Notes: generated by a model from the letters alone, not told the origin. 64,000 nt of DNA from Escherichia coli (GCF_016026235.1 NZ_CP065613.1), one strand, 5' to 3'. Positions 30,054 to 64,000 are shown, numbered from the stretch's first letter. Made by a program: numbers and translations.

Positions 30054-30288
30054 GGCGTATTCCAGATTAAGGTTAAGAATTTTCGTCTGCGCGAATGGTA
30101 CACCGATACCACTATCGGACAAAATTCTGCGTTTTAATTCAGCATTCACCGCCAAAAGCGACTAATTTTAGCTGTTACAGTCAGTTGCTAAATGCAAAGG
30201 AGCATTCATGAAGCAAATGCCTCTTAGGAATTAATCCTTTATAATCAATTAATTACAAGTGGCGTTTCGAAATCATTCGAAATTAATT

Positions 30289-31335
30289 CTAAATGTCTTT
30301 CCATTCCCTCCCTCGTCCGTCACGGTATTTATCCGTCATGCTGGATGAACGATGTCCAAGGAGCGCCTGAGTGAAATCACTGCCTTTTTCTGCTGAGTGC
30401 AGGCGACCGGATAAACTTCGGATTTCATGAAATGGCGGTGGGTCACCTTCCCATTTCAATCCGGATGTGTCTCGGGCAATCCTGAACTGTGCTGCGATTG
30501 TCCTGGCTGTCTTCCCTCCGAGTAACTTTTCGTTTTTACCGTTTATTTTTTTCAAGTTATCCAGTACATCGGCAAGTGTTAAATTCAATCTGGAAATCGT
30601 GGTGGGGAGAGAAATGCGAATTTTTGCCCCTGTTTTTTGTTGTTCCACGTATAGCCTGCCATCTCTTATATCCTCCCATCTCATAGCCGCCAGATCTCCT
30701 TCGCGCTGTCCTGTTACCAGTGCAAGATCCATGCAAAGGCCGAACCATTCGTTCTGGACGTCTGCTATTTTCCTGATTAACAGATACTCGTCAATTAACA
30801 GTCGACTGCGCTTCACTTCAGTTCTGAATGGCTTGGTTGCAGAAGCTGGATCTTCTTCGGCAAGACCAGAAGCTATAGCTGTTTTAAAAATGTCTGATAA
30901 AAGCGCCCTGTACTGGTTAGCAATAGCAAATTTACTCCCAGCTGCTCTGATTTCAAGAAAGCTGTACACCTCCCTTATGCCTATATTTTTAACCGGAACA
31001 CCACCAAAGTATTCACTTATGATTTTCAACCTCTGGTTGTGTCTTTTCATGGTGTTTGTGCTTAATTGTCTACGCTCTATTTCATTTCTGAAATTTAATA
31101 TCAGCTCGCAGAATAATGTTACGCTATTACCTTTTATTCTATCCAGTAAGCTTATATGTTGCGTGGATAATAATTCCATATTTGCCGCAATAGCCTCATT
31201 AACTGCAATTCTTTTGTCTCTTCCGATTCCAAACTCCCTTCCTGAACGTGGGTCACGATAACTATAATATCCACCTCGATTGTAAAGATTGGGTGGTAGA
31301 TCACGTGTGTTTGAGTTTCTTCTTCGTCCGGTCAT
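30289..31335 (-). CDS. int: lambda-type tyrosine integrase
   Basis: MTGRRRNSNTRDLPPNLYNRGGYYSYRDPRSGREFGIGRDKRIAV... closely parallels lambda Int; C-terminal HxxR...Y catalytic region (LLGHRSSSMTDKYRD). Confidence 0.93.
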   Translation of the reverse strand: MTGRRRNSNTRDLPPNLYNRGGYYSYRDPRSGREFGIGRDKRIAVNEAIAANMELLSTQHISLLDRIKGNSVTLFCELILNFRNEIERRQLSTNTMKRHNQRLKIISEYFGGVPVKNIGIREVYSFLEIRAAGSKFAIANQYRALLSDIFKTAIASGLAEEDPASATKPFRTEVKRSRLLIDEYLLIRKIADVQNEWFGLCMDLALVTGQREGDLAAMRWEDIRDGRLYVEQQKTGAKIRISLPTTISRLNLTLADVLDNLKKINGKNEKLLGGKTARTIAAQFRIARDTSGLKWEGDPPPFHEIRSLSGRLHSAEKGSDFTQALLGHRSSSMTDKYRDGRGREWKDI

Positions 31336-31525
31336 TTCTGATTCTCTGCAAAAGCCCGCCAGTCGTTTGAGGTGTAATTTTTTTTGCTGACTCATGAAAT
31401 AAATATTCACGCCCATCCTTTATCGGTGGTGGAAAAATCTTACATTCTCGCACCCAGCGGCGAACCGTTTCTGGGCTTCGTGGACGTAACTGACGGGCGT
31501 TCCATTCTTTGAGTGTCAAATACAT
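31301..31525 (-). CDS. xis: excisionase
   Basis: MYLTLKEWNARQLRPRSPETVRRWVRECKIFPPPIKDGREYLFHESA... near-identical architecture to lambda Xis; overlaps int start. Confidence 0.92.
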   Translation of the reverse strand: MYLTLKEWNARQLRPRSPETVRRWVRECKIFPPPIKDGREYLFHESAKKITPQTTGGLLQRIRNDRTKKKLKHT

Positions 31526-31629
31526 GTCATATTCCTGTAATATGACCGCCAGTAAATATACAGAATACTGGCGGGCGTGGTTGATTTTTAATAATCAGCT
31601 ATGAAGTTCTAATTTTGATATAATGCAAC

Positions 31630-31824
31630 TCACGAGGACAGAAGTTTCTCGCAATTAAAATTTATCAGTTTTACTTTCTGCTCTCTGGAAACGCCTGCTT
31701 CTTTTTTCCCTGAGAGCATTTTTTCGCATTCTGATTTCGTTAGTTTAGATTTTGAATATCTTGTCCAGCTGGTAGGAGAACCACCTTCCTTTTCAATAGT
31801 GGCTGTAATTTTATACATGAACAC
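31630..31824 (-). CDS. hypothetical phage protein (64 aa)
   Basis: ORF in the leftward early operon between the ATPase gene and xis. Confidence 0.4.
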   Translation of the reverse strand: MFMYKITATIEKEGGSPTSWTRYSKSKLTKSECEKMLSGKKEAGVSREQKVKLINFNCEKLLSS

Positions 31825-31868
31825 CTACATTAATATTTTCAAAAACCGTGTTCAAAATGCACTTGGTT

Positions 31869-32966
31869 TTACACCGGAATATTCTCATCGTATCCTGCTT
31901 GTTGCGTTTCGTTTTGTGTTTGTGGATCCGGGAATGCATATTCAACGCCTTCCAGTTCAATCCATAGTGCATTACGACCAGCTTTGATTGTCGGCCAGTC
32001 CATACCTTTGATTCTTTCCCATGAGCGGGAGGTGAATGTTTTTTCCAGCAAATCAGCTTTTGCGCGTTTGGCGTCGTTACTGGTGCCCCCATGGTGCTTG
32101 TTGAGCAACTCGATAATTTCATCAAGTGCGATTTCTTTTGCACGCTTTTCTTTTAGCCATGTCGGTGTACCGTCGTTGGCAAATAATTCACTGTTATCCC
32201 GTGAGGTATCGATGCCGAGGTGTTCACCTCCCAGGTTAAGAAACTCGATATGAGGAAGAAAGTTTTTAAATGTTGGGTTTGAAAATACCTGTCCATCAAT
32301 ACGGGTGGAGCGATCTTTTAGTATTCTGGCGGTGCGCCACACCTGACCGGTTTCTATGTTCATTTGCTTCTCCATCTGGATCAGGATGGAGGGTTCATAA
32401 CCGGTTTCTGTTTCTGCTTTCATTTTTATACCGGTTTTTGCCAACTGGCGTTTGCCATCATCACCTTCGAAAAAGTCATACTCATATCCTGCACGCCCGC
32501 ACATAATAATGTGCGCCTGACTGTTAACAAATCGATCGGTAAAGCGTCGCCACTCCTGTTTGAGCCACGCCCAGTCTGAAAATTCCAGTCCTCGTTTACG
32601 GTTTCGGCGTCTGGCATACTCGTCGCATAATCCGGTCCAGAAGTGACTGATGGAGTCGATGATCATTACGGAACCGCTGCTTTCCGCTTCATTAATGGCT
32701 TCAAGCAGATCAACAAACGAGCGGGTTTTTGCCGTAAATAATTCGATATTTTCCGCATCAAAGCGGGGTTTAACCCAGTCAGAGCCTGTTTCTGTGTCCA
32801 GAAACATTACCGGGCGGTTACCAGCTTCAATTCCCCGTTGCCGCATAAGCATTACCAGACCAATAGCCAGTTCGCTTGCTGTGTAGGTTTTGCCGTCGCC
32901 AGCAAACCCCATAATTCCTGCTTTTAGATAGGCCTGTGTGTTTATTGCTCGTTGAAAAAGCGCCAT
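31869..32966 (-). CDS. AAA_24-type (Sak4/RecA-like) phage ATPase
   Basis: Walker A GFAGDGKTYTA and Walker B VMIIDSISHFW motifs; 365 aa; sits where recT/bet lies in Rac/lambda. Confidence 0.55.
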   Translation of the reverse strand: MALFQRAINTQAYLKAGIMGFAGDGKTYTASELAIGLVMLMRQRGIEAGNRPVMFLDTETGSDWVKPRFDAENIELFTAKTRSFVDLLEAINEAESSGSVMIIDSISHFWTGLCDEYARRRNRKRGLEFSDWAWLKQEWRRFTDRFVNSQAHIIMCGRAGYEYDFFEGDDGKRQLAKTGIKMKAETETGYEPSILIQMEKQMNIETGQVWRTARILKDRSTRIDGQVFSNPTFKNFLPHIEFLNLGGEHLGIDTSRDNSELFANDGTPTWLKEKRAKEIALDEIIELLNKHHGGTSNDAKRAKADLLEKTFTSRSWERIKGMDWPTIKAGRNALWIELEGVEYAFPDPQTQNETQQAGYDENIPV

Positions 32967-32971
32967 AGATT

Positions 32972-33271
32972 TTAGTCCTCCAAATCAATATCAACCTGGT
33001 GGTGGGCAATGGTTTCAGCCATGTACCGGATGTGTTCTGCCATGCGCTCCTGAAACTCAACATCATCATCAAATGCGTGGCTGATTGCCTGTTTATTGGC
33101 ACCGTGGCGTTGCAAATGGTCGATGCAGAGCGATTCAAACAGGTGCTGAGGCAGACCTTTTTCCAGGTCGTCCGCCAGTTCCGTTTCTTTTTCTTCACGA
33201 ACGATCTGCTGGTAGTGGCGAGCCCATGCCATTTCTTCAATACGATCAAAAATCGGGTAAGCGCTCATCAC
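32972..33271 (-). CDS. hypothetical acidic phage protein (99 aa)
   Basis: ORF between the RecE-like gene and the ATPase gene, same strand, tightly packed. Confidence 0.4.
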
Positions 33272-35204
33272 TGGTCACTCCAAAATTTTCAAGCTTGTTG
33301 GCAATCATCATTGCGATGTCAGGGATTGCAGGCGCATAGGCTATGCACGCAGGATTCGCACATAAACCGTAAACCGCCGCAATCAACACCTGTTTTTTCC
33401 AGTTGAGTTCATCTTCGCCAGTTTCATTATTGCTATCATTATGCTGATCGCTGCCAGCGTTCTCCGGTAACAAATCATCAGCTTTTTCCGTTTTCTTCGG
33501 CTCTTCTTCCTGTGCTTCATCTGGTTTTTTTTCGTCAAAAGTTTCCTGATAAGTTGCGTCTCCCATCACCGCGCCACAGTCAGGGCAGTTATCCTCGCCA
33601 GTCTGATTGCAGGGTGTTCCCTCCTCCGGTTCGCTGTTCTGGTGCTGTTTATCTTCAGTCTGTCGCACTTCATTTTCCGTTTTTTTGACTTCATTTGAGG
33701 AGATATGATGACCGGGAATCCATTTCGGATCATTCGGGTCGCTAATCCCTTCAACAAATTCTCCGCGAGAGGCAGCCAGTAATTTGTCTGCATCGACAGG
33801 ATTTTTGGGCGGAATGTTTTTCCGGGCTTCATGGAGTTCTGCCCGCAGTTCCTGATATTTCGCATCAACAGCATTTACCTGTGACTGAGCATCCAGCGGC
33901 TGCGTGTCCTGATGATGTTCAGTTGCATCCGGTTCCACTGTTTCAGCCGTTGCCTGTTCATCTGCCATTGCGCAAGATGGTTGCGGTTTTTCTTCATCAT
34001 CCTGTTTTCCTTCTTCTGTTACTCGCTGCGGCATCGGGGCAGAGGAGCGACCGCAGGCAATATCCACGATTTCCGGATCAGGGTTGGCATGATCGGTTTC
34101 AGTCAGTACTTTGTTCAGATATTCAGTGACGTGTGCGGGGATGACCTCGATCCCAATTGGTGCTTCTTTCACGGACGCAACCACGATGGCGCGGGAATAA
34201 TCCAGCCCGCCAGGCATGGTGATGAATTTGTCGCGGAAAACAGAAAAGGGTGGTTTATTTTCAGCGATAATTTCCTCAATGCGTTTAGCGTGTGCCGGAT
34301 GAAGGTTATAGATGTCCACGTCCATTGAACGGGCCAGTACGCCAGTGGCTACATCGCGCGTCAGTGACGTCAGATCGTGGACGAAACCTTCGCCGCGATC
34401 GGTGAGGTTCCCGCCGCCAGCATTAGCACCGGAAGTCGTGCGAGTGATGCGTGAAACACGATTCCCTTTTCGCCATTCTTTTGTCAGAAGACCGCGATCA
34501 ATGTGTTCGGTATCCAGCCAGGCTGAAATGAAATTCTTAAATTCATAGGGCTGATGTTTTTTCGTGATAGAGAAAACTGCCTTAATTGCATCAGTCAGGC
34601 GGAGCAGGGCGGCATTATCCAGAGTTGTCGGTTCTGCCATGCCGCGTATGGCCAACAGCAGATTCTGGACATAGCTGTTTTCCTGATCCATCTCAAGAGC
34701 AGTAATGTGTTTGCGTTGTTCACGGGTGGCATGATGCAGGTATTTCCGATCCCCGGCAGCATACGTAAAAATGTGCAGAAGACGCTGTGTGAACCGCAAA
34801 GTGGCTACAGAGACTTCGCAATCCTGGCAATCCTCGTGGGCGTCTGCCTGCGCGTTTTCTTCCTGGCCTCCCGCCAGTTCTTTGGTTTCTTGAGCATTAT
34901 CCTGGTGGTGAACGTCGTCTGGCGCTGCTCCCGGTTTTAGTTCCCATGTCATGGAGTCTTTGCTGAGTTGATAGCGTTCACTCCAGGTAAAATCGATCTC
35001 ACCTTCAGGGGGAAGGTCATTAACGACAGGAAAATTTGTGGCAACAGCTTTAAAATAGTTGCTCAGTTTTTTACCTGACTTAACGAGCAGATAGTCCAGA
35101 GTGGTGCTGGTCGATTCAAAATCGTCGCTTGCCCACAGGACGACGTCAGGTTCACCGGATGATTTTTTCGCTTTCCGTAACAGGAAGAGTGGTTTTGTGC
35201 TCAT
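33246..35204 (-). CDS. RecE (exonuclease VIII) N-terminal-region homolog; C-terminal nuclease domain apparently absent
   Basis: N-terminus [31 protein letters not shown]... and internal block [35 protein letters not shown]...[64 protein letters not shown] match my recollection of Rac RecE; 652 aa vs about 866 aa for RecE. Confidence 0.55.
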
Positions 35205-35652: not shown

Positions 35653-35934
35653 TTAAAGTTCGTGTGCCATCTGGTCTTTTTCGGCGCAGATTTCACTACA
35701 ATATTTGCGTTTCTTTTTCCTCATCATGGTTCCGTGCATGTAAATAAGTTCAGCAGTGTAAGCCTTATCAGGGCTTACTTGTCTGTCACACAGGCCATAA
35801 GCACAGGGAATTAAATCGGGATCACCTTTCTGCTGGAGGGTTTTTTTGATTATCCATAACAATTTTTTGATTCCGGTGTGTGTTATGGTCTGCTGAGGTG
35901 CAGAGGTAAAACAATAATCAAGCATAGGGTTCAT
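35653..35934 (-). CDS. hypothetical zinc-ribbon protein (93 aa)
   Basis: two Cys pairs (CAYGLC ... CSEIC). Confidence 0.4.
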   Translation of the reverse strand: MNPMLDYCFTSAPQQTITHTGIKKLLWIIKKTLQQKGDPDLIPCAYGLCDRQVSPDKAYTAELIYMHGTMMRKKKRKYCSEICAEKDQMAHEL

Positions 35935-35950: not shown

Positions 35951-36505
35951 TTATTTTAAAGAAAGTAATTGTTCCACAGTCATATTTTTAATTGCGCCCC
36001 GGTTAACAAGAGTCCATCCCTGTTTTTCCAGATAAAACCGGAAAGTCTCCAGGGTACAGACCAGTGCGCCATCAGGAACGGTTTCGGTGAATTCGACATT
36101 GCCGAATTTGTCGAAGTGAACAACCAGAGTGCGACCATCACCCGGAATCATCTTGTCAGCAGGTGGGGTGTTATTCTGGCGCAGTTCGGCCTCCATGCGG
36201 TCGAACTCAGCAATGTAGGCTTCCTTGAATGCGGCGGCTTTTTTGCCAGTGAAGCCCATCATCAGGAAAACGAAGCCGTTTTTGGTGATTTGGTACATTG
36301 GGCGTTTTTCGCCTTTGGCGTCGGTATAGGTGACGGGCTTAAAATTAAGCCGGTTAAACTCCGGCGAGCATTCGAGAGTTTCGATCTTCTGAATAACGTT
36401 TTTGTGCATTTTCCGGAAGAACTTCGCAACCGCAACAGACGTAGTGACAGCGCGACCATTTTCGATGGTTACGTCAGGGTGAGAAAGGGTAAGGATAGTA
36501 GCCAT
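35951..36505 (-). CDS. Rha-family phage regulatory protein
   Basis: MATILTLSHPDVTIENGRAVTTSVAVAKFFRKMHKNVIQKIETL... matches Rha domain pattern; GAGG RBS before this Met; ORF is open further upstream to 36799. Confidence 0.5.
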   Translation of the reverse strand: MATILTLSHPDVTIENGRAVTTSVAVAKFFRKMHKNVIQKIETLECSPEFNRLNFKPVTYTDAKGEKRPMYQITKNGFVFLMMGFTGKKAAAFKEAYIAEFDRMEAELRQNNTPPADKMIPGDGRTLVVHFDKFGNVEFTETVPDGALVCTLETFRFYLEKQGWTLVNRGAIKNMTVEQLLSLK

Positions 36506-36821
36506 GATGGCAGCCTCGATAGTCAGTTTAAATAACTCACCACCAGAGGTAGCAATCTCATGGGTGGTGAGACGCACAGGGTTGCTACAACCGGTGACTA
36601 CCGAAACCGGCCAGCCTTGCGGCTGCCCTGCACGCCCCACCATAATCTGAATGTGGCTGTGCTTGACGCATAAAAAAACCGCCTGAGCGCGGTTATGCGC
36701 AGTAGTCATCGTCGGGGTAGCAATCCCGGCCCCCGTTTTATGAGGTGCAGGTGCACTATAATTCCACCCGTTCTGGTTTTCAATAGCTACATTCAACATT
36801 TTCTCTCACCTTTCATCACCG

Positions 36822-37503: not shown

Positions 37504-37692
37504 ATATCCTGCACGGCCTTCTGCTTTGTAGAAGGCTTCTTCGCTATCATAATCGCCAGATTCCAGCGCTTCTTTAGCCAGCCAGATGCGTGCCCCAGTG
37601 CCTGCATTTGGCTCCAGTTGCTGGAGGCGTTTTGCATCTTCTGGGAGTAGAGCGATAACGTGTTTTAATTCTGTCTCGTTCATTTTACTCAC
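37480..37692 (-). CDS. small phage protein, YdaG-like
   Basis: 70-aa ORF adjacent to the ydaF-like gene as in Rac. Confidence 0.4.
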   Translation of the reverse strand: MSKMNETELKHVIALLPEDAKRLQQLEPNAGTGARIWLAKEALESGDYDSEEAFYKAEGRAGYSPGLGGV

Positions 37693-37840
37693 CTGAATGT
37701 CTTCCCAACCAACGACGTGCGCCAGCTTCGGTTTTAAACGTTTTGCTTTTGGTATACGTCATGGCGGTGAATGTGCCGTCCTGGTTGGGGAACACGCCGT
37801 ACACCAGAGATTCGTTGTTGCCAAGATCGATAGTATTCAT
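37685..37840 (-). CDS. small phage protein, YdaF-like
   Basis: MNTIDLGNNESLVYGVFPNQDGTFTAMTYTKSKTFKTE... matches my recollection of Rac YdaF (51 aa). Confidence 0.5.
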   Translation of the reverse strand: MNTIDLGNNESLVYGVFPNQDGTFTAMTYTKSKTFKTEAGARRWLGRHSGE

Positions 37841-38042: not shown

Positions 38043-38450
38043 TTATTTGTTTGCGCTTCTTTTGCGAGCTTTGAGTAGTTCTTCAAAAAGTTTGTTGAAA
38101 TTTTCAACTCGAGCACGCATCTCTGACAACAGGGCCTTTTGCTCTGACTCAGGCAGTGCGTCGAACAGTTGAAGTAACTCTTTTTGATCTTCTGTCAGAA
38201 TGGCTGGCTGATTATCCGGGATCGGTTCGCCTGGTTGTTTATCTTCATCCCCAAAAAGAAGCCAAGTCGGTGAGCACTGAAGCGCTTGGCTCAGTGCGAA
38301 TAATCTTTTCCCCGCCGGCTGTGTTTCATCTCTTTCCCATTGAGAAATTGTTACGTGAGCCACTTTGACCAGCTTACCTAATGCGGCCTGAGACAGTTTT
38401 AATTTTTTACGCCTATGTAAGAGGCGAGCACCGAAGGTTTCGTTTTTCAT
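38043..38450 (-). CDS. prophage repressor (HTH-XRE; cI/RacR-like)
   Basis: N-terminal HTH LSQAALGKLVKVAHVTISQWERDE; divergent from the cro-like gene. Confidence 0.75.
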   Translation of the reverse strand: MKNETFGARLLHRRKKLKLSQAALGKLVKVAHVTISQWERDETQPAGKRLFALSQALQCSPTWLLFGDEDKQPGEPIPDNQPAILTEDQKELLQLFDALPESEQKALLSEMRARVENFNKLFEELLKARKRSANK

Positions 38451-38526: not shown

Positions 38527-38754
38527 ATGTTGAAAATTGATGCTATAGCGTTTTTTGGCAGCAAAACAAAGCTTGCCAATGCCGCAGGAGTTAGGCTGGC
38601 AAGCATTGCTGCATGGGGGGAACTGGTTCCTGAAGGTCGCGCGATGCGCCTGCAAGAGGCATCTGGCGGGGAACTTCAGTACGACCCCAAAGTTTATGAC
38701 GAATATCGTAAGGCAAAACGACCTGGGAAGGTGATTCATGAAAATCAGGCATGA
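38527..38754 (+). CDS. Cro/YdaS-like small DNA-binding protein
   Basis: 75 aa, MLKIDAIAFFGSKTKLANAAGVRLASIAAWGE...; first rightward gene. Confidence 0.6.
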   Translation: MLKIDAIAFFGSKTKLANAAGVRLASIAAWGELVPEGRAMRLQEASGGELQYDPKVYDEYRKAKRPGKVIHENQA

Positions 38755-39160
38755 GCACATCGAATCAGTGCTGTTAGCCCTGGCAGCCGAAAAAGGGCAG
38801 GCGTGGGTCGCTAACGCAATTACTGAAGAATATCTGCGGCAGGGGGGCGGCGAATTGTCTCTGGTACCAGGCAAGGACTGGAACAATCAGCAGAATATCT
38901 ATCACCGTTGGTTGAAAGGTGAAACGAAAGCGCAAAGGGAAAAAATTCAGAAACTGATCCCTGTGGTTCTGGCAATTCTTCCGCGTGAGCTGCGTCACCG
39001 ACTCTGTATCTTCGATACCCTGGAACGCCGTGCATTACTGGCGGCGCAGGAAGCGTTGAGTACGGCAATTGATGCGCATGATGATGCTGTCCAGGCCGTT
39101 TACCGGAAAGCACATTTCAGCGGTGGTGGGTCGCCCGGCGATTCTGTCGTAGTGCATTGA
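38738..39160 (+). CDS. YdaT-like protein (CII-position)
   Basis: 140 aa, MKIRHEHIESVLLALAAEKGQAWVANAITEEYLRQGGGELSLVPGKDWNNQQNIYHRWLKGETKAQREKIQKLIP... resembles Rac YdaT. Confidence 0.6.
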   Translation: MKIRHEHIESVLLALAAEKGQAWVANAITEEYLRQGGGELSLVPGKDWNNQQNIYHRWLKGETKAQREKIQKLIPVVLAILPRELRHRLCIFDTLERRALLAAQEALSTAIDAHDDAVQAVYRKAHFSGGGSPGDSVVVH

Positions 39161-40026: not shown

Positions 40027-40032
40027 CGGACC

Positions 40033-53970: not shown

Positions 53971-53981
53971 GGAACAGACGA

Positions 53982-54923
53982 ATGATTACTTTTGATCAGG
54001 CAACCGTTGACAGCTCTGGTGCCTTTCTCATCGGGGAGCTGGAGCGACTCGACCAGACGCTGAACCTGCCACTGGTGGGGTACACCTGGAGCCGCGATAT
54101 TCAACTGCGTGAAGACGTCTCCATCGCAGATGACATTTCCAGCTGGACGAATACCAGCTTCGCCGCTGCGGGTACTGGCGCAAATCCGAATGGAAAAAAC
54201 TGGGTAGGCAAAGACTCAACCGCTATTGCTGGCGTGAACGTGGATATCGGCAAATCCGGTAACCCGCTGAACCTGTGGGGGATGGAACTTGGCTGGACGG
54301 TCATAGAATTGCAGGCTGCTCAGCAGGTCGGCCGCCCGATTGATACGCAGAAGTATGACGGTATGCAACTGAAATGGCAGATGGATAACGATGAACAGGT
54401 ATATGTTGGCGATTCCGCATTAAACCTGAAAGGCCTTGTTACCCTGGACGGCGTGCCTGTCAACAACGCTGCCAAAACGTGGGCAACCTCAACACCGGAC
54501 GAAATCCGCGCAAGCATTAACCAGGTGCTGTCTGATGCGTGGGCCGCTTCTGGTTACTCTGTGGTTCCGCGTGATTTGCTGATCCCGCCTGAGCAGTTTG
54601 CTCTGTTGTCCAGCATCATCGTTTCATCTGCAGGTAACCAGTCCCTGTTGACGTACCTTCAGACCAACACCATCAGCTATCACCAGAACGGTGTTCCGCT
54701 GAATATCCGCGCGGTTAAATGGCTGAAAGGCCGTGGTGTGGGGAATAAGGATCGCATGGTTGCGTACACCAACGATAAAAAATACGTCCGCTACCCGCTG
54801 GTTCCGCTTCAGAGCGTGCCGGTGCAGTATCGCGGTCTGTATCAGATCGTCACTTACTACGGCAAGCTGGGTGCAGTCGAGCCAGTGTACAAAGAAACCA
54901 TTTCGTACGTTGATGGCATTTAA
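53982..54923 (+). CDS. putative major capsid protein
   Basis: 313 aa, size and position typical; no search run. Confidence 0.45.
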   Translation: MITFDQATVDSSGAFLIGELERLDQTLNLPLVGYTWSRDIQLREDVSIADDISSWTNTSFAAAGTGANPNGKNWVGKDSTAIAGVNVDIGKSGNPLNLWGMELGWTVIELQAAQQVGRPIDTQKYDGMQLKWQMDNDEQVYVGDSALNLKGLVTLDGVPVNNAAKTWATSTPDEIRASINQVLSDAWAASGYSVVPRDLLIPPEQFALLSSIIVSSAGNQSLLTYLQTNTISYHQNGVPLNIRAVKWLKGRGVGNKDRMVAYTNDKKYVRYPLVPLQSVPVQYRGLYQIVTYYGKLGAVEPVYKETISYVDGI

Positions 54924-54964: not shown

Positions 54965-55186
54965 ATGGCAAAAAATAATGCAGTAATACACGTACATACC
55001 CCGTTTGTGCTCACGCTTCCCGACGGTTCGCGGCGCGAGTTTGTTAAAGGCCGTCATGCAGTGGAGGAAGACGTTGCCACGCACTGGTTCACTCGTGCGC
55101 ACGCGGAAGTATCCGTTGGCAAAGCCACAGACGCGCGTAACGAGGTAAAAAATGCCAAAGAATCAAAGTCTGCCAGCGGTAAGTGA
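54965..55186 (+). CDS. hypothetical head protein (73 aa)
   Basis: ORF in structural operon. Confidence 0.3.
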
Positions 55187-55559
55187 TTTTCGCCGCGACT
55201 TCCCGCAGTTTGCTGACCCTGCCAAATATCCCGAAGCGCAAATCCAGTTTCGTCTGAATCTGGCCGATGAACTGCTGAGCGAAAACGTCACCGAAAAAAA
55301 GTTGTTTCCGTACTTTGCCGGATTGTTCGTTGCGCACTACATGACGCTCTGGGCGGCAGACAGCCGGGCGATGCTGGCTGGTGGTCCGGGCGGTTCAACC
55401 AATGGTGTTCAGTCCTCAAAGTCCGTGGATAAGGTAAGCGTCAGTTATGACACCAGCGCGACGCTGAATCCTGATGCAGGTTTCTGGAATAACACCCGAT
55501 ATGGCGCTGAATTTTATCAGTTGATCACGATGTTCGGTGCAGGCGGTCGCCAGCTATGA
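55152..55559 (+). CDS. hypothetical head-tail joining protein
   Basis: 135 aa, overlapping stop/start arrangement. Confidence 0.3.
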
Positions 55560-56044
55560 GTTTCAAAAGCGGTGTAACAACGAGGGTGGATAACGCTCAG
55601 GCCATTCTGGATGCGCTCAGGTCGTTAACCAAAAAAGATGTGCTGGTCGGCATCCCTTCGGAAGACAGCGAGCGGGATGATGTTCCGTTTGGTAATGCGG
55701 GCATCGGTTACCTCAACGAATACGGCTCACCGGCGCAAAACATCCCGCCACGACCTCACCTGGTCCCCGGCGTTAAATCGGTAGAAGAACAGACAGTGCC
55801 GCAGCTCAAAGCAGCGGCGCAGGCTGCGCTTGATGGTAATGCGGCGGGTGCGGAAAGAGCGCTCAACCGTGCCGGAACGCTGGCCGCTAATGGCGTCAGG
55901 CGTTACATGACCATTACCGGCTTTACGCCGCTTGCTGACAGTACTGTTGAAGCCCGGGCTCGTCGGGGCGCAAGGGGGCAACACTGGAACTTGCCCGGCG
56001 TGCTGCTGGCGAATCTCCGGGAACCGAACTGGCGAAACCATTAA
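55556..56044 (+). CDS. hypothetical head-tail joining protein
   Basis: 162 aa, translationally coupled. Confidence 0.3.
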
Positions 56045-56095
56045 TTGACACCGGGCAATATCGCAGAGCGATTACCCATGTTGTGAGGGATAAAG

Positions 56096-56485
56096 ATGCC
56101 GACTCTTGATGTAACAGATGTGCTTTTTGACCCCGATTTTTGCGACTTCAATTTGTGGGTAACACGCCGTGTGCAAACGGTGGATGAGGATGGGATCGGC
56201 AGCGACAGCGAAGTTAAAAAGCAGTTTGCCGGAGTCGTTACTGTTGATCGCTCTCTGGAAAACCGTCGTATGCAGGCCGGGCAGGTAATCAGTGGTGCAA
56301 TTCTGATTGTGACGACTGAGCGACTGACGCAGGGACAGACTGGCCGTGATGCCGATATCGTGACGTATCAGGGCCGTGATTATCGTGTGACTTTCGTCGA
56401 CCCGTATACAGCGTATGGTGCCGGATTCGTTCAGGCGCATTGTGAGTTGCTGCCGTTTGATGGGGGAATTCCGGTTGAGCAATAA
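56096..56485 (+). CDS. hypothetical structural protein
   Basis: 129 aa with RBS. Confidence 0.3.
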   Translation: MPTLDVTDVLFDPDFCDFNLWVTRRVQTVDEDGIGSDSEVKKQFAGVVTVDRSLENRRMQAGQVISGAILIVTTERLTQGQTGRDADIVTYQGRDYRVTFVDPYTAYGAGFVQAHCELLPFDGGIPVEQ

Positions 56486-57023
56486 CACCAGCACAGAGCG
56501 CGGATGGCTGATACCAACCAGTGGCGATCCGGATTATGACGAAGCGCTCGACAGGCTGTTAAGCCAGTGGATGCGTAACGTTTCCGGTCTGTCTGCCGGG
56601 ATGGTTCGTCCGCGCTGGCAGAAAGAGCAGCCGCCACTGCTACCGGCTGAAACGAGCTGGTGTGCGTTTGGGGTTATCGGATGGTCAGGTGATGACAGTC
56701 CGGCATTCACCAGACAGACCGATGATGGCTCTCAGCTCTGGCGGCATGAAACGATTGAGTGTATGGCTTCGTTTTATGGTCCGGCGGGGATGGTGTATGC
56801 GTCCCGGTTTCGTGACGGTATATCTGTGCCGCAGAACAATGCAGCACTGAATGCGCTGGGGCTGTCTCTTGGCGATTACACAGGTCTGACTCCCTTCCCT
56901 GAACTTATTAATCAGCAATGGGTCCGCCGCTACGATATGACGGTGCGTCTGCGCCGGAAGGTTGTGCGCGAGTACGGTATTAAATCGCTGGTGGAAGCAC
57001 CAGTCATCTTTTTCGGAGATTAA
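56460..57023 (+). CDS. hypothetical structural protein (start uncertain)
   Basis: ORF-track ORF 56415..57023; internal Met chosen to limit overlap. Confidence 0.3.
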   Translation: MGEFRLSNNTSTERGWLIPTSGDPDYDEALDRLLSQWMRNVSGLSAGMVRPRWQKEQPPLLPAETSWCAFGVIGWSGDDSPAFTRQTDDGSQLWRHETIECMASFYGPAGMVYASRFRDGISVPQNNAALNALGLSLGDYTGLTPFPELINQQWVRRYDMTVRLRRKVVREYGIKSLVEAPVIFFGD

Positions 57024-57026: not shown

Positions 57027-58172
57027 ATGGCACAGGGCTTGCCTGTATCAAACGTTGTTAATGTTGATGTGATCATGTCGCCGCGTGCAGCATCAGGGCG
57101 AAATTTTGGTGCATTACTCATTCTCGGCCCGTCCACAATCATTCCGGTAAGTGAGCGCATTCGCCGTTATTCTGCTGCGGAAGATATTGGAAAAGATTTT
57201 GGCGTGGAATCACCAGAATATAAGGCTGCGCAGGTGTTTTTCTCACAATCACCGAAACCTCAGGAGGTTTTTGTTGGTCGTTGGGTGAAAACGAAGGGAG
57301 ACAGCGAACAGGCCACGCCTGAGACGCTGGAGCAGGCTGTGAATGCCATGCTTGATTATACTTCATGGTATGGGCTGGGGATTGCAGACGATGCAGATAT
57401 TCCGGATGCAGACTGGCTGAAAGTGGCTGCGGCGATCGAATCCTCTTCTGTAAGCCGTATTCTGGCGATTACGACAAGCGATGAGAAATGCCTGCAGACT
57501 GCATCCAGCGATGATTTGGCATCAAAACTGAAAACCGCCGGATATTCACGCAGTTTTATTCAGTATTCATCGGGTAATAAATACGCTGCGTTATCTGCAT
57601 TTGGCCGGGCATTCACGGTTAATTTCAATGGCAGTAATACCGCGATTACGCTCAAGTTTAAGCAGGAGCCGGGTGTCGGGTATGAAACACTGACAGTCAG
57701 CCAGGCATCGGCACTTGATGCAAAAAACTGCAATGTATTCGTGTACTACCAGAATGATACGGCTATCCTCCAGCAGGGAGTGATGGCTAACGGCGATTTC
57801 TTTGATGAACGCCACGGCCTGGACTGGTTACAGAATTATGTGCAGACCAACCTCTATAACCTGCTTTATACCAGCACCACGAAAGTACCCCAGAGTGAAG
57901 CCGGTATTACCCGACTGTTATCAAGTGTTGAAAAATCACTGGATCAGGCCGTTCAGAATGGACTGATTGCTCCGGGCGTATGGAACGGTGGCGACCTTGG
58001 TCAGTTGTCATCAGGTGACACGCTGCCCAAAGGTTATTACGTATACGCCCAGCCGCTGGATGAACAGGCACAATCAGAACGTGAAGCCCGTAAGGCTCCG
58101 GTGATTCAGGCTGCAATAAAACTTGCAGGCGCGGTTCATTACGCTGACGTACAGATTAACGTTGTTCGCTAA
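57027..58172 (+). CDS. putative tail sheath protein
   Basis: 381 aa, followed by a tube-sized protein, chaperone-sized protein and tape measure. Confidence 0.4.
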
Positions 58173-58182
58173 GGGGAAGTGA

Positions 58183-58623
58183 ATGTCTACCTATTCTTTT
58201 ATGGATGTCACTGCGACGCTGACCGGGCCGACCGGTTCGATTGACCTCGGGTACGGTTCGGCAAGTTCTGAAGAGGGGATTGTGGTTGCGATGGGCGGTC
58301 CTAAAAACACCATGACCATCGGTGCTGATGGCGAAGTGATGCACAGTCTCCATGCAGATAAAAGCGGGACGATTACCGTTAACCTTCTGAAGACATCACC
58401 GACAAATAAAAAATTGTCGCTGGCGTATAACGCACAGAGCCAGTCTTCTGCCACATGGGGGAATAACGTTATTGTGATCCGAAACAAGGTCAGCGGCGAC
58501 ATCATCACGGCACGCAGTGTTGCGTTCCAGAAACAACCGGATAACGCCAACGCTAAAACCGGTAATACGATGCCGTGGGTGCTTGACTGCGGCAAGATTG
58601 ACCAGGTTCTCGGGGAGTTTTAA
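58183..58623 (+). CDS. putative tail tube protein
   Basis: 146 aa directly after sheath candidate. Confidence 0.4.
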   Translation: MSTYSFMDVTATLTGPTGSIDLGYGSASSEEGIVVAMGGPKNTMTIGADGEVMHSLHADKSGTITVNLLKTSPTNKKLSLAYNAQSQSSATWGNNVIVIRNKVSGDIITARSVAFQKQPDNANAKTGNTMPWVLDCGKIDQVLGEF

Positions 58624-58626: not shown

Positions 58627-59079
58627 ATGGAATTCGAAATCAAAGGCGTGAAATATCGCGCGGCAAAACTCAGCGTTTTTGACCAGCTGAAAGTGACCCG
58701 CAAACTTCTGCCGGTGCTGGCAGGAATGATGTCAGATTTCGGGAGCATTCGCTCCCGTTTGCCTGCTGACGGCAAAATAGACACCGTGAAATTCGAGCAG
58801 TTAAAACCGGTGTTTGAAACCATGCTCCCGCGTATCGCTGAGGAACTGTCTTCCCTGACCGAAGATGACACCAGTGCAATTATTCATCCCTGTCTTGCGG
58901 TGGTGTCGCGGCGTCATATGGACGGATGGGTGCCGGTATTTACCCAGGGCGAACTGATGTTTGATGATATTGACCTGCTGGTCATGCTGCAGCTGGTGGC
59001 GCGGGTGGTCGCCGATTCGCTAGGAAATTTTTTGCAAGGACACCCTACCAAAGAGACGCCCATCCCGCCAGCGGAATAA
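58627..59079 (+). CDS. putative tail assembly chaperone
   Basis: 150 aa, position before tape measure. Confidence 0.3.
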   Translation: MEFEIKGVKYRAAKLSVFDQLKVTRKLLPVLAGMMSDFGSIRSRLPADGKIDTVKFEQLKPVFETMLPRIAEELSSLTEDDTSAIIHPCLAVVSRRHMDGWVPVFTQGELMFDDIDLLVMLQLVARVVADSLGNFLQGHPTKETPIPPAE

Positions 59080-59256
59080 CCTTCAATAGCCTGCCGGGTG
59101 GTGAAGATTTTATTCTTCGTCCGGCGCTTGCCTTCCATATTGACCAGAAAGATCTTAACAGTGGTGCGGTAGATCTCTGTCGCATCGCGCTTCTTAATGA
59201 CTACCTTGATATGTGCGAGGACAACGATGTCCGGGTAGAAAAATGGAGAGAGGATA

Positions 59257-61209
59257 ATGAACGCCGAGACTATTAAAGATTTCCTCGTCTCGCTTGGCTT
59301 CAGTGTGGATGATGCAGGAGCGAAAAAGTTCGGTTCTGTCCTCGCCGGTACAACTGCAAATGTCATCAAAATGGGGCTGGCTGTTGAAGGAGCTGCGCTG
59401 TCCGTGGTGGCCTTCACGGCTAAGATCGCCTCCGGTCTGGATAATCTTTACTGGGCGTCACAGCGCACCGGCGCGACAGTCCAGGGAATTCAGTCTATTG
59501 GCTATGCGGTTTCGCAGGTTGGCGGCAGCGTGGACGCTGCGCGATCTTCTCTGGAAAGCCTCTCCCGGTTTATTCGTAACAATCCCGGTGCAGAAGGCTT
59601 TCTGAATCGCCTGGGCGTACAGACCCGTGATGCCAGCGGTAACATGCGTGACATGGCCGCTATTTTTACTGGTGTAGGCCAGAAGCTCAGCGGTATGCCG
59701 TATTACCGGGCTAACCAGTATGCGCAGATGCTGGGCATTGACGAAAATACCCTTATGGCTATGCGTCGCGGAGTGGGGCAGTTCAGCGCTCAGTATTCAG
59801 AAATGGTGAAAGCGATCGGATTTAATGCCGATCAGGCTGCCTTATCGTCAAACCGGTTTATGACCTCGCTGAAATCGCTCGGTGAAATGGCCGGGATGGC
59901 GCGGGACAAAATCGGATCGAATCTTGCGGACGGACTGGCGGGGCAGATTGATAACCTGCGCAAAAAGATAATTGAAAATTTTCCCAAAATTGAAGTCACC
60001 ATCACAAAGGTCATAAAGGGGATCCTCTGGCTGGGTGAGATAGTCGGGCGGGGTGCATTCCGGATAGTCGATGGTGTCGGAGATATCATCGAGTGGTGGG
60101 GGAAACTGGATGCCGAAACGAAAACCCTGATAGAGGTTATCGGCGGTCTGGTTGTCGCCATGCGGATACTTAACTCTACTTTCTGGATGTCACCTATAGG
60201 GCTGATTACCGGTCTGATCGTGGCTCTCGGTCTCTTGTGGGAAGACTACAAAACATGGAAAGAAGGCGGTAACAGTCTTATCGACTGGGAAAAATGGCAA
60301 CCAGCAATAGATAAAGCGAAGGATGCGATCACCTGGCTTCGTGATCACCTTCTGGAACTAAAAGATGGTGTTGGCGGCTGGCAAAATGCACTGGAAATCC
60401 TCGGTACATTCATCGCGGGTGTCTGGGTATCCAAGGTTCTGGGGGCTTTCGGGAAAATATCAGGTTTGCTGGTCCCGCCGTGGTTAAAAGGCTGGATGGC
60501 TTATGCTGCGTATTTGTACTCTGATCGCGAAAATATTGGTGCCAGTGCGAAGTCATCCTGGGATTACACGAAACAAAATATTGGAGGTTCATTGCGCTGG
60601 CTTGGCATTGATACCGATTTTGGTCGTAATCCTCATACCGTAAAAGGCGCAAATATTCAGTCAGATATTCCAGGTGCTGAGCCGGAACAACATGCGCAGT
60701 CTACGAAGCGTACTTTAGCCGATCGGAATAACAATCCAGGGAATATTCGCCCGGTGAGCGGTAAAGGGTTCCGGTTTTTCGAATCAGCTCTTGAGGGCTG
60801 GGAGGCGATGAAAAACCAGCTCATGCGTTACTTTACTGGGAAAACAACCGGACGGGCATTACAGACTATTCAGGATATTGTCAGTACCTGGGCCCCGGCA
60901 GGTGATAACAACGATCCGAAAAAGTATGCACAGGATGTTGCGAAATGGATGGGAGTATCACCGAATGCAATATTGAATCTTACAGATCCCCGGACTATGG
61001 GAGCATTGATGCAGTCGATGGCGCGCAAAGAAGGTTATTCAAACTGGAACAGCCCGCTGGCGTATCAGGCCGCCGCTGGCAACCTTAACCAGCAGACTGT
61101 TATAAATGTTCATGGAGTTAACAACCCTCAGGAGGCGGCTAATCTGATCGCTGACAAGCAGGGGGCTGTAAATGCCAGGGCGGTACAGCAATTGAAAGGA
61201 CCTGCGTAA
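59257..61209 (+). CDS. putative tail tape measure protein
   Basis: 650 aa, helical N-terminal half with central hydrophobic segments (LIEVIGGLVVAMRILNSTFWMSPIGLITGLIVALGLL). Confidence 0.45.
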   Translation: MNAETIKDFLVSLGFSVDDAGAKKFGSVLAGTTANVIKMGLAVEGAALSVVAFTAKIASGLDNLYWASQRTGATVQGIQSIGYAVSQVGGSVDAARSSLESLSRFIRNNPGAEGFLNRLGVQTRDASGNMRDMAAIFTGVGQKLSGMPYYRANQYAQMLGIDENTLMAMRRGVGQFSAQYSEMVKAIGFNADQAALSSNRFMTSLKSLGEMAGMARDKIGSNLADGLAGQIDNLRKKIIENFPKIEVTITKVIKGILWLGEIVGRGAFRIVDGVGDIIEWWGKLDAETKTLIEVIGGLVVAMRILNSTFWMSPIGLITGLIVALGLLWEDYKTWKEGGNSLIDWEKWQPAIDKAKDAITWLRDHLLELKDGVGGWQNALEILGTFIAGVWVSKVLGAFGKISGLLVPPWLKGWMAYAAYLYSDRENIGASAKSSWDYTKQNIGGSLRWLGIDTDFGRNPHTVKGANIQSDIPGAEPEQHAQSTKRTLADRNNNPGNIRPVSGKGFRFFESALEGWEAMKNQLMRYFTGKTTGRALQTIQDIVSTWAPAGDNNDPKKYAQDVAKWMGVSPNAILNLTDPRTMGALMQSMARKEGYSNWNSPLAYQAAAGNLNQQTVINVHGVNNPQEAANLIADKQGAVNARAVQQLKGPA

Positions 61210-61859
61210 TGGACTTTTTATCTGTTTTACTGCAGCAGCGAACCCGCTCAATAGGAATCATTATTCCTGATGTGGTTATTACCGAAAAGCACACTGACGC
61301 CTTGGAAATTACGGAACATCCGGTTGAACAGCCCACGAATGCTGGTGCCAGTGGTGAGGGCGCTGGTTACATATCAGAACACGCATTCAGGCGCCCTTCT
61401 GAGGTTGTGATGGAAACCGGTTTTTCCGGAGGCGGATCGCTGCTTGATTTTGCCAGTAACCTGACTGCTACCAGTTTACTGGGGCTGAGCCCGAAAGAAC
61501 TGTATCAGGAACTGCTTAACTTGCAGCGGAATCGTATTCCTTTCGATGTGACAACCGGCAAGCGTATTTACAACAATATGTTGATAAAAACGCTGGAGGT
61601 CACGACCGATAAGAGTAGTGAAAATGTGCTTCTGGCGACACTTACCCTCAGGGAAGTAATTATTACCTCCACGCAGTCAGTCAGGGTTGCCCCGAAAAAC
61701 AATATGACCGAGGGAGTCGGAACGTCTGCTGTGCAGAATACAGGCACCAAAACAACGGTGCCGCCGAATAATTCCATTCTGAAATCGCTGCCACAGATGG
61801 CGCAAGAAGGTATCTCCACTGTTGATGGGTATTTGAGCAATTTATTTCTGGGAAGGTGA
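61209..61859 (+). CDS. putative tail/baseplate protein
   Basis: 216 aa, stop/start overlap with tape measure. Confidence 0.3.
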   Translation: MDFLSVLLQQRTRSIGIIIPDVVITEKHTDALEITEHPVEQPTNAGASGEGAGYISEHAFRRPSEVVMETGFSGGGSLLDFASNLTATSLLGLSPKELYQELLNLQRNRIPFDVTTGKRIYNNMLIKTLEVTTDKSSENVLLATLTLREVIITSTQSVRVAPKNNMTEGVGTSAVQNTGTKTTVPPNNSILKSLPQMAQEGISTVDGYLSNLFLGR

Positions 61860-61862: not shown

Positions 61863-62165
61863 ATGAAAGCCGTAGAAATCCCACTGGTTGCTGACAATCA
61901 GACTTTTGCCACCACAATTAACGGTTCGGTTTATCACCTGTCTGTCATCTGGCGAGGCGAGTGCTGGGTTCTGGATCTTGCTGACAGCAATGGCTCCGCC
62001 ATTATATCAGGTATACCGATGATTACGGGGGCTGACCTGCTGGCACAGTATCGATATATGGATCTGGGTTTTTCTCTGGTGGTGCTCTGCGACGTGGCAG
62101 GGCAGGAGAATCCGACGCAATTCGATCTTGGAACGCTCTCACACCTCTATGTTTTCACGGAGTAA
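61863..62165 (+). CDS. hypothetical tail protein
   Basis: 100 aa. Confidence 0.3.
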   Translation: MKAVEIPLVADNQTFATTINGSVYHLSVIWRGECWVLDLADSNGSAIISGIPMITGADLLAQYRYMDLGFSLVVLCDVAGQENPTQFDLGTLSHLYVFTE

Positions 62166-62167: not shown

Positions 62168-63208
62168 ATGTCGAAAAACTGGATGCGTCACTTTGAATTA
62201 TTGCTTGTTGATGATAAGGGCGACGGGATAAAAATTTCTGAGCTTAAAGTCACTTTCAATATTCAGAAAATGCCTGCGACCATATTTAATGGATTTGTTG
62301 GAAATTTTAAGGTTTATAACCTGTCTCCTACCACTCAGAACCGGATTATGCAGAAGGAGTTTTCGCGTATACAGGTTATTGCCGGATACAAGGGGCAACC
62401 GGATGCAGCAGGTAATTATCCTGATGAAAACGTTGGTATGATATTCAATGGAGATATCCGTTTTACTGTCACTGGTAAAGATAATGCCACAGACAGTTGG
62501 ATCATGTTGCAGTGTATTGACAGCTGGGAAGGCCACCTGAACGCAAGTGTGAAAACCACAGTGGCTGCTGGCTGGAAGTACAGCGATCTTTTCAGTCTGG
62601 GTATGAAATCATTCGAACCATATGGCATCGAATCCGGTGCAGTTCCTGACATGCCTGAAACGGTATTTCCCCGAGGTCGCGTTGTTTATCAAAACACATC
62701 AAGGTTGATGAATCATATCGCAGGGCAGTGTAAAGCTAACTGGTGGTATGAAAATAATCTGGTAAATATTGTTCCTGAAGATAAATATATTGGTGTTGCT
62801 ACGGTGTTGAATGCTAACACCGGGCTTATCAGTATGCCACAGCAGACGATGGGAGCTGGCGTAAATGTCAGATGTCTGATTAATCCAAATATTAAGCTCG
62901 GTGGGCTTATTCGTCTGGATCAGGCATCTGTATACCGTGCCTCTTTGAGTAATGACCAGGTAGCGAAATCGCCAGCACGACTGGATGAGTCTGAAAGCGA
63001 CGGTAATCTCTACGTTAACGGTCTGCCAGGCATGTCACAGCCTGCCAGCATTAATACTGACGGTGATTACATTGTGGGCAGCATTGATTATACTGGCGAC
63101 ACCCGAGGGCAGGCGTGGTATATGGACCTGCTTTGCCTGGCTAAAGGGAGTAAAAGTTTACTCACTCCTGATACGATAGCGAAAATAAGTGGGGTACCAA
63201 ATGCTTAA
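62168..63208 (+). CDS. putative baseplate protein
   Basis: 346 aa. Confidence 0.3.
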   Translation: MSKNWMRHFELLLVDDKGDGIKISELKVTFNIQKMPATIFNGFVGNFKVYNLSPTTQNRIMQKEFSRIQVIAGYKGQPDAAGNYPDENVGMIFNGDIRFTVTGKDNATDSWIMLQCIDSWEGHLNASVKTTVAAGWKYSDLFSLGMKSFEPYGIESGAVPDMPETVFPRGRVVYQNTSRLMNHIAGQCKANWWYENNLVNIVPEDKYIGVATVLNANTGLISMPQQTMGAGVNVRCLINPNIKLGGLIRLDQASVYRASLSNDQVAKSPARLDESESDGNLYVNGLPGMSQPASINTDGDYIVGSIDYTGDTRGQAWYMDLLCLAKGSKSLLTPDTIAKISGVPNA

Positions 63209-63443
63209 ATGGATCTTATTACTGGTATATTTTGTGACTTTGTCTTCTGTGGCTGCGGTAACATGCACCACTTCAAATACAGGAACAACTTACTGTACTG
63301 GTACAGACAGTAGTGGTTCTACAGTTAAAACAGAATCTTATACAACCAATACAGGTACTACGTATACCACAGGAACGATTAATGGGAGTGCAGTACATCG
63401 TGAATGCCAGGCGACCAATACTGGCACAACGTACTGTAATTAA
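63189..63443 (+). CDS. small secreted Thr/Gly-rich repeat protein
   Basis: signal peptide MLKWILLLVYFVTLSSVAAV then three TNTGTTY(C/T) repeats with spaced Cys. Confidence 0.4.
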   Translation: MGYQMLKWILLLVYFVTLSSVAAVTCTTSNTGTTYCTGTDSSGSTVKTESYTTNTGTTYTTGTINGSAVHRECQATNTGTTYCN

Positions 63444-63478
63444 TTTTTTTAAGAAATCAGCTATAAGAGACATTTGTA

Positions 63479-63820
63479 ATGAAGAAAATATTCCTTCTCG
63501 CAGTGTTGACTCCAACAATTTGTGTAGGTGGAACGCTGAATGATTTTTTTGGACTGCACACCTCACTGGCTGATAACTACATCATCAAGAGAGAGATCAC
63601 AAATAGGGCTGTTTCTAATGCGGCTATGGACGCTGTATCTAATGGTCGTGAGGCGGATTTTGGTGATGAGTTAATGAAAGAACATGGTGATAGTTATGGT
63701 GAAATAGCTCTGCGTCAACTCGCTTTCGAGTGCGGTTATTCTTTTTCCGATAGTGGCCAATCTCTTACGATTCTAAAAAAAGAAGAATGTAGATTGGTGC
63801 TATCTGAAAATAAGAAATGA
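63479..63820 (+). CDS. small secreted hypothetical protein
   Basis: signal peptide MKKIFLLAVLTPTICVGG; own RBS; AT-rich, lower GC than neighbours. Confidence 0.4.
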   Translation: MKKIFLLAVLTPTICVGGTLNDFFGLHTSLADNYIIKREITNRAVSNAAMDAVSNGREADFGDELMKEHGDSYGEIALRQLAFECGYSFSDSGQSLTILKKEECRLVLSENKK

Positions 63821-63882
63821 GTTCGCTAAATTAACTTTTCACGGTAATTGCTTCTATCACCATGGAAAGAAAACTAGCTACA

Positions 63883-63912
63883 TAAAACCCGCCTTCGAGT
63901 GGGTTTTTTGCT
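63883..63912 (+). terminator. rho-independent terminator
   Basis: aaacccgcc-ttcgag-tgggtttttt. Confidence 0.6.
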
Positions 63913-63928
63913 TTCTGGAGGCATATGA

Positions 63929-64000
63929 ATGCCAGTTTCTTTAAGCGCTCAACTTGGTAGCAAAGAACAGGCCGATGTAAGACTTGCTGGCTCTGTCATG
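63929..64000 (+). CDS. 5' end of a further prophage gene (truncated by window end)
   Basis: GGAGG RBS then ATG; MPVSLSAQLGSKEQADVRLAGSVM... continues past window. Confidence 0.35.
   Translation, partial: MPVSLSAQLGSKEQADVRLAGSVM

Follow-up and report, generated by a model that had tools for sequence, protein, structure and literature searches.

A predicted lambdoid prophage with a SEN34-type contractile-tail module at the ybhA/pgl junction of Escherichia coli

Can a prophage with lambdoid control genes specify a contractile tail? The question is raised by a 64,000-nucleotide stretch of Escherichia coli DNA (GCF_016026235.1, NZ_CP065613.1), called the window below, in which a prophage spans position 30205 to the window end. 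The original prediction, made without database searches, described a mosaic with lambda-type int/xis, Rac-like immunity and replication and phage-21-type lysis, and took a 381-amino-acid (aa) and a 146-aa gene before the tape measure gene for possible sheath and tube genes. A match of the 381-aa protein to a non-sheath family would have spoken against it. We find it very probable that the element is an integrated temperate phage in which lambdoid regulation is joined to a myovirus particle of the SEN34 type (Pam3/XM1-like), which supports the predicted pairing of a lambdoid early half with a contractile tail. The combination of lambdoid genes and a sheath is already known from phages SEN34 and SfV and is not new; what is distinctive of this copy is its combination of blocks and its insertion site at pgl.

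Sheath, tube and baseplate genes

The 381-aa protein is encoded on the forward strand at 57027-58172. It belongs to Pfam family DUF3383 (7.5e-80) and to PHROG 205, 'tail sheath' (3.9e-135). In the PDB it matches the gp6 sheath of phage XM1 (E 2.8e-40) and the sheath of phage Pam3 (E 8.8e-24 over residues 5-376), and it is 65% identical to the protein annotated as 'tail sheath' in SEN34. The homology to sheaths thus runs along the length of the protein, the opposite of a match to a non-sheath family. The 146-aa tail tube gene follows on the same strand (58183-58623). Its product matches Pfam KPP10_Orf10 (1.9e-60) and the Pam3 tube in the PDB (7.2e-10), with further solved phage tube proteins below Pam3, and is 72% identical to the SEN34 tube. 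An HMM- or structure-based annotation of 57027-58623 had been proposed as a check; in Pfam, PHROG and the PDB it returned sheath and tube families, and both genes, first picked out by size and position, turn out to be what they looked like. The contractile-tail reading stands, both proteins being homologues of tail components with solved structures.

It should be noted that these identities are easily overlooked in standard annotation. NCBI PGAP labels the sheath and tube merely as DUF3383 and DUF3277. NCBIfam assigned no family to the sheath, nor to the holin, the Q-like protein or Xis, and places the tube in a generic 'phage structural protein' subfamily. The bare PGAP labels, together with the fact that siphovirus tails are the rule among lambdoid phages, are what can be said for a non-contractile tail, in which the 381-aa protein would be a large siphovirus major tail protein. 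Such a tail is hardly conceivable here: the homology to the Pam3 and XM1 sheaths extends along the protein, a separate tube gene follows it, homologues of a baseplate hub and tube initiator are present, and the relative SEN34 is contractile by electron microscopy. We regard the non-contractile alternative as refuted by the sheath and tube matches.

The remaining tail genes lie downstream on the forward strand. A tail assembly chaperone (58627-59079), a short DUF6889 open reading frame (ORF) (59076-59276) and a tape measure protein of 650 aa whose C-terminal part is a lytic transglycosylase (59257-61209) are assigned as a block by PHROG 1688, 2276 and 873 and by PGAP names. They are followed by a tube initiator/LysM-type protein (61209-61859), which matches the Pam3 tube initiator gp17 in the PDB (3.3e-09), a plug (61863-62165) and a hub (62168-63208), which matches the Pam3 hub gp19 (4.4e-07, PDB); the baseplate block is assigned to PHROG 817, 349 and 196. 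A 113-aa ORF in the baseplate region (63479-63820) precedes the spike gene, of which the window holds the first 24 codons (63929-64000), identified by translation and by coordinate transfer from a 99.9% identical prophage in E. coli FDAARGOS_943, at the same ybhA/pgl site. Within the window the baseplate comprises initiator, plug and hub; genes for a gp25-like sheath initiator and a J/gp47 wedge are seen only in the FDAARGOS_943 copy, beyond the point where the window ends.

With all 49 window proteins as tblastn queries, no structural protein matched phages Mu, P2 or SfV at E <= 1e-3. A comparison with Mu-like or P2-like phages had been suggested; no structural similarity came of it, and we reject a tail of either type. 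On the similarities described above, the tail module is assigned to the compact Pam3/XM1/SEN34 lineage.

The Salmonella phage SEN34 (Brunovirus SEN34) has a long contractile tail, as seen by electron microscopy, together with lambda-like regulation and replication genes, and has been placed in the 'temperate 26' lambda cluster of Casjens and Grose (PMC5261728). SEN34 and the window prophage share an overall architecture in which lambdoid early, Q and lysis genes lead into a common virion module. The genes from portal to tape measure are colinear, with about 80% DNA identity and 64-96% protein identity. Differences lie in the int, immunity, replication, Q, holin and terminase genes. The SEN34 annotation lists Gam/RecT/exo, CI/Cro/CII, O/P, NinB/NinG, Q and S-R-Rz; its lambda O/P-type replication, exo/RecT and lambda-type holin are its own, whereas the window prophage carries YdaU/YdaV of Rac type, a RecE but no RecT, a P21 pinholin and a terminase of Klebsiella prophage type. 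Most early, lysis and terminase genes have no or a low match to SEN34. The DNA match between the two covers 57% of a 16-kb query at 80% identity, that is, the virion block only. The genus guideline of the International Committee on Taxonomy of Viruses is about 70% nucleotide identity over the whole genome. By that nucleotide criterion the window prophage would fall outside Brunovirus.

The same virion module is found in a group of predicted E. coli prophages, vB_EcoM-689R2, 611R5, 683R1 and 606R2 (ON470582 and related records). The portal-to-tape-measure DNA is 96.7% identical to that of 689R2, and for the sheath and tube proteins identity is 99%. In contrast, the early region of this group is wholly different and encodes a DNA polymerase and a helicase, and terminase, Q and lysis genes differ as well. 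The baseplate diverges past the tape measure: plug and hub are 47-54% identical to their counterparts in SEN34 and 689R2 (48-54% for the 689R2 group).

More distant relatives of the tail are the cyanophage Pam3 and the Vibrio phage XM1, whose simple contractile tails have been solved by cryo-electron microscopy (PMC9942802, PMC10457771). Sheath, tube, tube initiator, hub and major capsid protein are homologous to theirs, and the compact tail gene set is the same. The similarity is distant, however, and Pam3 and XM1 have other hosts and lifestyles and lack the lambdoid regulatory half. The Shigella phage SfV, according to its annotation, also combines lambda-like int, xis, cI, cro, Q and S-R-Rz genes with a contractile tail, but the SfV tail is Mu-like and the SfV head HK97-like.

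Unity and integrity of the element

From left to right the prophage encodes int/xis, RecE/Gam, Rac-like immunity and replication, a Q-like protein, four tRNAs, lysis, terminase, head and tail. A tblastn comparison gene by gene bears out the description of this genome as a mosaic, and the gene classes named in the original prediction all occur at the positions it gave. A sharp recombination joint lies at the terL/portal boundary (~50083-50136), with Klebsiella-type DNA upstream and 689R2-type DNA downstream, and identity drops a second time after the tape measure, at plug and hub. To judge from these comparisons, the genome is a recombinational mosaic whose int, early, lysis and terminase blocks come from different sources.

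Such sharp differences in the source of the DNA, and a reverse-strand DedA gene between the lysis genes and terS, could also be read as two adjacent unrelated elements, a lambdoid remnant from int to lysis and a myovirus or tailocin remnant from terminase to baseplate. However, the order of lysis genes, terS, terL and portal through sheath is also that of SEN34, an isolated, plaque-forming phage of 40.7 kb, and many E. coli genomes match it in one uninterrupted stretch. The window from 30.2 to 64.0 kb contains no further integrase or att core and no host gene. The full set of head and packaging genes argues against a tailocin. We consider two separate elements highly improbable, and the idea is already largely refuted.

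The element as a whole is lambdoid in the usual sense of a lambda-like functional gene order and sequence patches shared with lambdoid phages, both of which are found here by sequence comparison. Protein identities to lambda are 75% for Xis, 81% for Gam, 64% for Rz and 45% for Int. The early region has DNA matches to 687 phage records, mostly lambdoid or Stx phages.

The tail-completion/Neck1 gene (55556-56044, forward strand) is frameshifted. At 55965-55968 the window reads GGGG, where 689R2, FDAARGOS_943 and SEN34 have GGGGG. The 1-base deletion leaves a protein of 162 aa with 24 aberrant C-terminal residues, compared to 184 aa in the relatives; adding one G in silico restores the conserved C-terminus of the 184-aa protein. 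The difference may be an inactivating mutation or a homopolymer assembly or sequencing error. It raises the possibility of a cryptic, defective prophage with the right gene set and a truncated Neck1 that gives no infectious particles. The frameshift relative to three relatives fits this, as does the state of the near-identical FDAARGOS_943 copy, which is clearly decaying. On the other side, all remaining ORFs of the 34 kb are intact, no insertion sequences are present, and a single-base homopolymer difference is a typical assembly error. We hold a defective prophage to be possible though rather unlikely; it would be compatible with a lambdoid myovirus and not opposed to it.

Several points count against the interpretation of the element as a temperate lambdoid myovirus. 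The Neck1 frameshift may leave this copy defective and without infectious particles. The contractile tail is predicted here from its genes, the electron microscopy being that of SEN34, a relative with a 65% identical sheath. The right third of the prophage, with the rest of the baseplate genes, the fibres and attR, lies outside the window. The terminator upstream of the lysis genes and its read-through by the Q-like protein come from a consensus scan. Finally, the 'vB_EcoM' names of the 689R2-type records were not used as evidence of morphology; these records are PHASTER predictions and not isolated phages, with families assigned by PHASTER homology (preprint), and the 'M' reflects that homology and not microscopy.

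From the attachment site to the connector genes

The left flank of the window is E. coli core chromosome, with mngB, cyd, tol-pal, the lysT-valT tRNA cluster, gal and mod, and is 98.6-98.8% identical to many complete genomes. The chromosome is left directly after ybhA, and G+C changes from about 0.52 to about 0.42 at the left end of the prophage. The attL core is the 13-bp sequence TTCATGAAGCAAA at 30205-30217 (forward strand), which overlaps the start codon of pgl and has the host genes ybhA and modC to its left. The core was defined by a three-way alignment of the window, the empty K-12 site and attR of FDAARGOS_943, and occurs once in the window. The prophage had been predicted to extend from 30210 to 64000. 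The left end falls within the att core and is correct; the right end is not an end of the prophage, which continues beyond the window and is cut 24 codons into the spike gene (63929 onward). The insertion at the ybhA/pgl junction is shared with one of the 5,426 complete E. coli genomes, that of FDAARGOS_943.

The native pgl promoter and ATGAAGCAAA read into phage DNA at attL, giving an 8-codon ORF. At attR, as seen in FDAARGOS_943 (L002, ~46130), the pgl coding sequence is placed behind phage DNA. Since pgl is split at the att junctions, its expression in a lysogen would depend on sequences at the phage ends.

The integration genes are encoded on the reverse strand. A 375-aa ORF (30289-31416) encodes a lambda-family tyrosine integrase (PHROG 7244), 45% identical to lambda Int over 357 aa (E 2e-96). 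The homology begins at residue 30 of the ORF product, so that the true start may be further in. The excisionase gene xis (31301-31525; PHROG 629) encodes the protein that is 75% identical to lambda Xis. Both proteins had been called close to those of lambda; they are of the lambda family, and for Xis the description is apt, but for Int it overstated the similarity.

The recombination block (31869-35204) is encoded on the reverse strand as well. It consists of a 365-aa AAA ATPase (31869-32966; PHROG 1366, with weak Sak4-like similarity), a Gam-like nuclease inhibitor (32972-33271; PHROG 259, the 81% identical homologue of lambda Gam) and a 652-aa RecE-like exonuclease (33246-35204; PHROG 607, 69% identical to Rac RecE). 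PGAP product names in relatives agree with these assignments. No RecT was found in this block, neither by PHROG assignment nor in the tblastn comparison of the window proteins. A RecE-like exonuclease that is accompanied by a lambda-Gam-like protein and an AAA ATPase instead of RecT is an unusual partner set. On the same strand follow genes for a YdaE-like protein (35653-35934) and a Rha-family regulator (35951-36799), assigned by PHROG 6751 and 995 for the pair and by the PGAP names in the FDAARGOS_943 copy.

The immunity region contains, on the reverse strand, a DUF1391/YdaF-like ORF (37685-37840), 77% identical to its counterpart in the K-12 Rac prophage, and a gene for a helix-turn-helix repressor (38043-38450). 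A gene for a Cro-like regulator is encoded divergently on the forward strand (38527-38754). All three are named by PHROG and PGAP. The repressor and Cro have no tblastn match to K-12 RacR/YdaS. The replication block (38738-41216, forward strand; PHROG 163, 2509, 50 and 142) encodes YdaT (38738-39160), 94% identical to YdaT of K-12 Rac, a YdaU-like initiator (39238-40026) that is 81% identical to Rac YdaU in its C-terminal half, YdaV, a DnaC-like loader 93% identical to that of Rac (40033-40779), and a DUF977 protein (40794-41216) that closes the block.

Compared with Rac (K-12 and Rac-SA53), the YdaT, YdaV, YdaF-like, YdaE-like and RecE-like proteins and the C-terminal half of YdaU are 58-94% identical. 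DNA identity to Rac-type records is 88-92%, including the DNA in which the repressor and Cro genes sit. The integrase, the attachment site and the repressor/Cro specificity differ from those of Rac, RecT is missing, and Rac-family phages have siphovirus-type tail genes of their own. Neither RacR/YdaS immunity nor a RecE-RecT pair is present, and we do not count the element among the Rac-type prophages; only its replication block and some small ORFs are Rac-like. The earlier description of Rac-like immunity and replication with YdaF/S/T/U/V-like genes was right for replication and for YdaF, T, U and V, and overstated for the immunity alleles.

Two probable accessory genes follow on the forward strand, a QueH-like gene (41778-42464) and a hok/mok-type (type I) toxin gene (42635-42847). 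The pair is assigned to PHROG 3217 and 251; in the near-identical FDAARGOS_943 copy PGAP names them 'epoxyqueuosine reductase QueH' and 'HokD'. The nin-like region (43381-44863, forward strand) encodes DUF1367/NinB-like and DUF1364 proteins and then a Q-like protein, with coordinates taken from PGAP and assignments from PHROG 319, 131 and 753. The Q-like antiterminator, as it had been predicted, is a DUF1133 protein (44309-44863) that matches PHROG 753 at 1.8e-79. Between this gene and the holin, ARAGORN finds four phage-borne tRNA genes (45053-45363, forward strand) with anticodons CAU (Ile according to PGAP), UCU (Arg), UGU (Thr) and UCC (Gly). In a related prophage of strain RMDEC364 the fourth tRNA is annotated as tRNA-Val and not Gly. 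A consensus scan gave a terminator-like hairpin with a T-run at 45976-46002 (forward strand; 10-bp stem, 6 GC pairs), 40 nucleotides upstream of the holin gene. We suggest it as a candidate terminator read through by the Q-like protein.

The lysis genes are on the forward strand. The pinholin (46043-46258) belongs to Pfam PF04971, 'Bacteriophage P21 holin S' (1.7e-35), and is 83% identical to EssD of prophage DLP12. The signal-anchor-release (SAR) endolysin (46258-46755) shares 96% identity with DLP12 RrrD, and before its lysozyme domain lies a Gly/Ala-rich hydrophobic N-terminal segment, as expected for this type. Rz (46752-47222) has Rz1 embedded within it (46972-47178); the two are assigned to PHROG 13 and 3198. 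The cassette resembles that of phage 21 and DLP12 in its P21 holin S family, its RrrD-like SAR endolysin and its embedded Rz/Rz1. It differs in the holin N-terminus and in Rz, which is just 61% identical to DLP12 RzpD. With an S21-family holin, an endolysin with a SAR segment and a spanin pair, the genes are those of a predicted phage-21-type lysis system, in agreement with the original prediction. The DedA gene mentioned above (47311-47823, reverse strand) encodes a membrane protein named by PGAP, with weak NCBIfam and PHROG matches, and is probably accessory.

From the terminase onward all genes are again on the forward strand. The small (48018-48782) and large (~48733-50136) terminase subunits are assigned to PHROG 370, 3717 and 2 and show about 83% DNA identity to Klebsiella prophage terminases. 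TerL is only 36% identical to SEN34 TerL and is of a different terminase type. The head module (50136-54923; PHROG 146, 324, 1961, 563 and 264) encodes a DUF1073 portal, a MuF-like protein, a DUF2213 protease/scaffold-like protein and a Gp24-type cement protein, both assigned by PHROG, and the major capsid protein (53982-54923), which matches that of Pam3 in the PDB (4.8e-19). The head proteins are 80-91% identical to those of SEN34.

The MuF/SPP1-gp7-type head morphogenesis protein (51454-52236) had been recognized before and matches Pfam Phage_Mu_F (4.4e-18) and TIGR01641, phageSPP1_gp7. The first 149 nucleotides of its ORF (51454-51602) lie within the 3' end of the portal gene, in another frame. 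This overlap is kept in SEN34 and 689R2, where annotators start the MuF gene later. PGAP calls the gene in FDAARGOS_943 a pseudogene with an internal stop. We reject a defect in this gene, as the ORF is open in the window and the sequence is the same in all relatives.

The connector genes (54965-57023; PHROG 302, 222, 939 and 1973) encode a STY1053-like ORF, a DUF4054 protein, Neck1, a 129-aa protein and the neck/tail terminator (56475-57023). The last is named from PGAP and PHROG alone; a PDB search with it gave only spurious F-box/WD matches.

The protein families suggest how such a phage would work. In brief, Int and Xis would integrate and excise it at pgl, and the repressor would maintain lysogeny. 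After induction, the Q-like protein would let transcription pass the terminator into a single late operon. The pinholin would depolarise the membrane, by which the SAR endolysin would be released. The sheath would contract around the tube and DNA would be injected, with the transglycosylase domain of the tape measure and the spike presumably penetrating the envelope.

Related prophages and their ipaH genes

The sheath-tube pair is present in 326 of the 5,426 complete E. coli genomes (~6%), nearly always at an identity of at least 95%. The FDAARGOS_943 copy continues past the spike with gp25-like, J/gp47, DUF2612 and tail-fibre genes up to attR, and is riddled with IS1, IS2 and IS600. Next to pgl, after the tail-fibre genes, it carries ipaHb on the reverse strand (L002, 43429-45255), a type III secretion system (T3SS) effector gene.

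Another, more divergent prophage with this architecture sits near yfaA in strain RMDEC364. Its genes include lambda-type int/xis, those for AAA ATPase, Gam and RecE, and an RrrD-type lysis cassette. Its DUF3383 sheath is longer, with 494 aa (L013, 34527-36011), and an IS66 is inserted in its connector genes. It ends with ipaHa (L013, 46124-47887), likewise a T3SS effector gene on the reverse strand after the tail-fibre genes. A literature search for a link between ipaH and lambdoid prophages found nothing specific to this element.

For annotation, the labels DUF3383 and DUF3277 mean that prophages of this kind can be misread as lambda-like siphoviruses. The present case illustrates modular exchange, in which lambdoid control regions are joined to an unrelated contractile-tail virion module, a principle established since SfV and SEN34. 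A possible wider interest lies in the ipaH genes at the right end of the relatives, outside the window. Their position suggests that chromosomal ipaH genes of Shigella and enteroinvasive E. coli are carried by phages of this lambdoid-myovirus family. We tentatively speculate, with more doubt than confidence, that the window prophage is an un-decayed form of the ipaH-carrying prophage of these bacteria; the window ends before the cargo region. If this is true, ipaH genes could be spread by a SEN34-like lambdoid myovirus that is still largely intact and serves as their mobile carrier.

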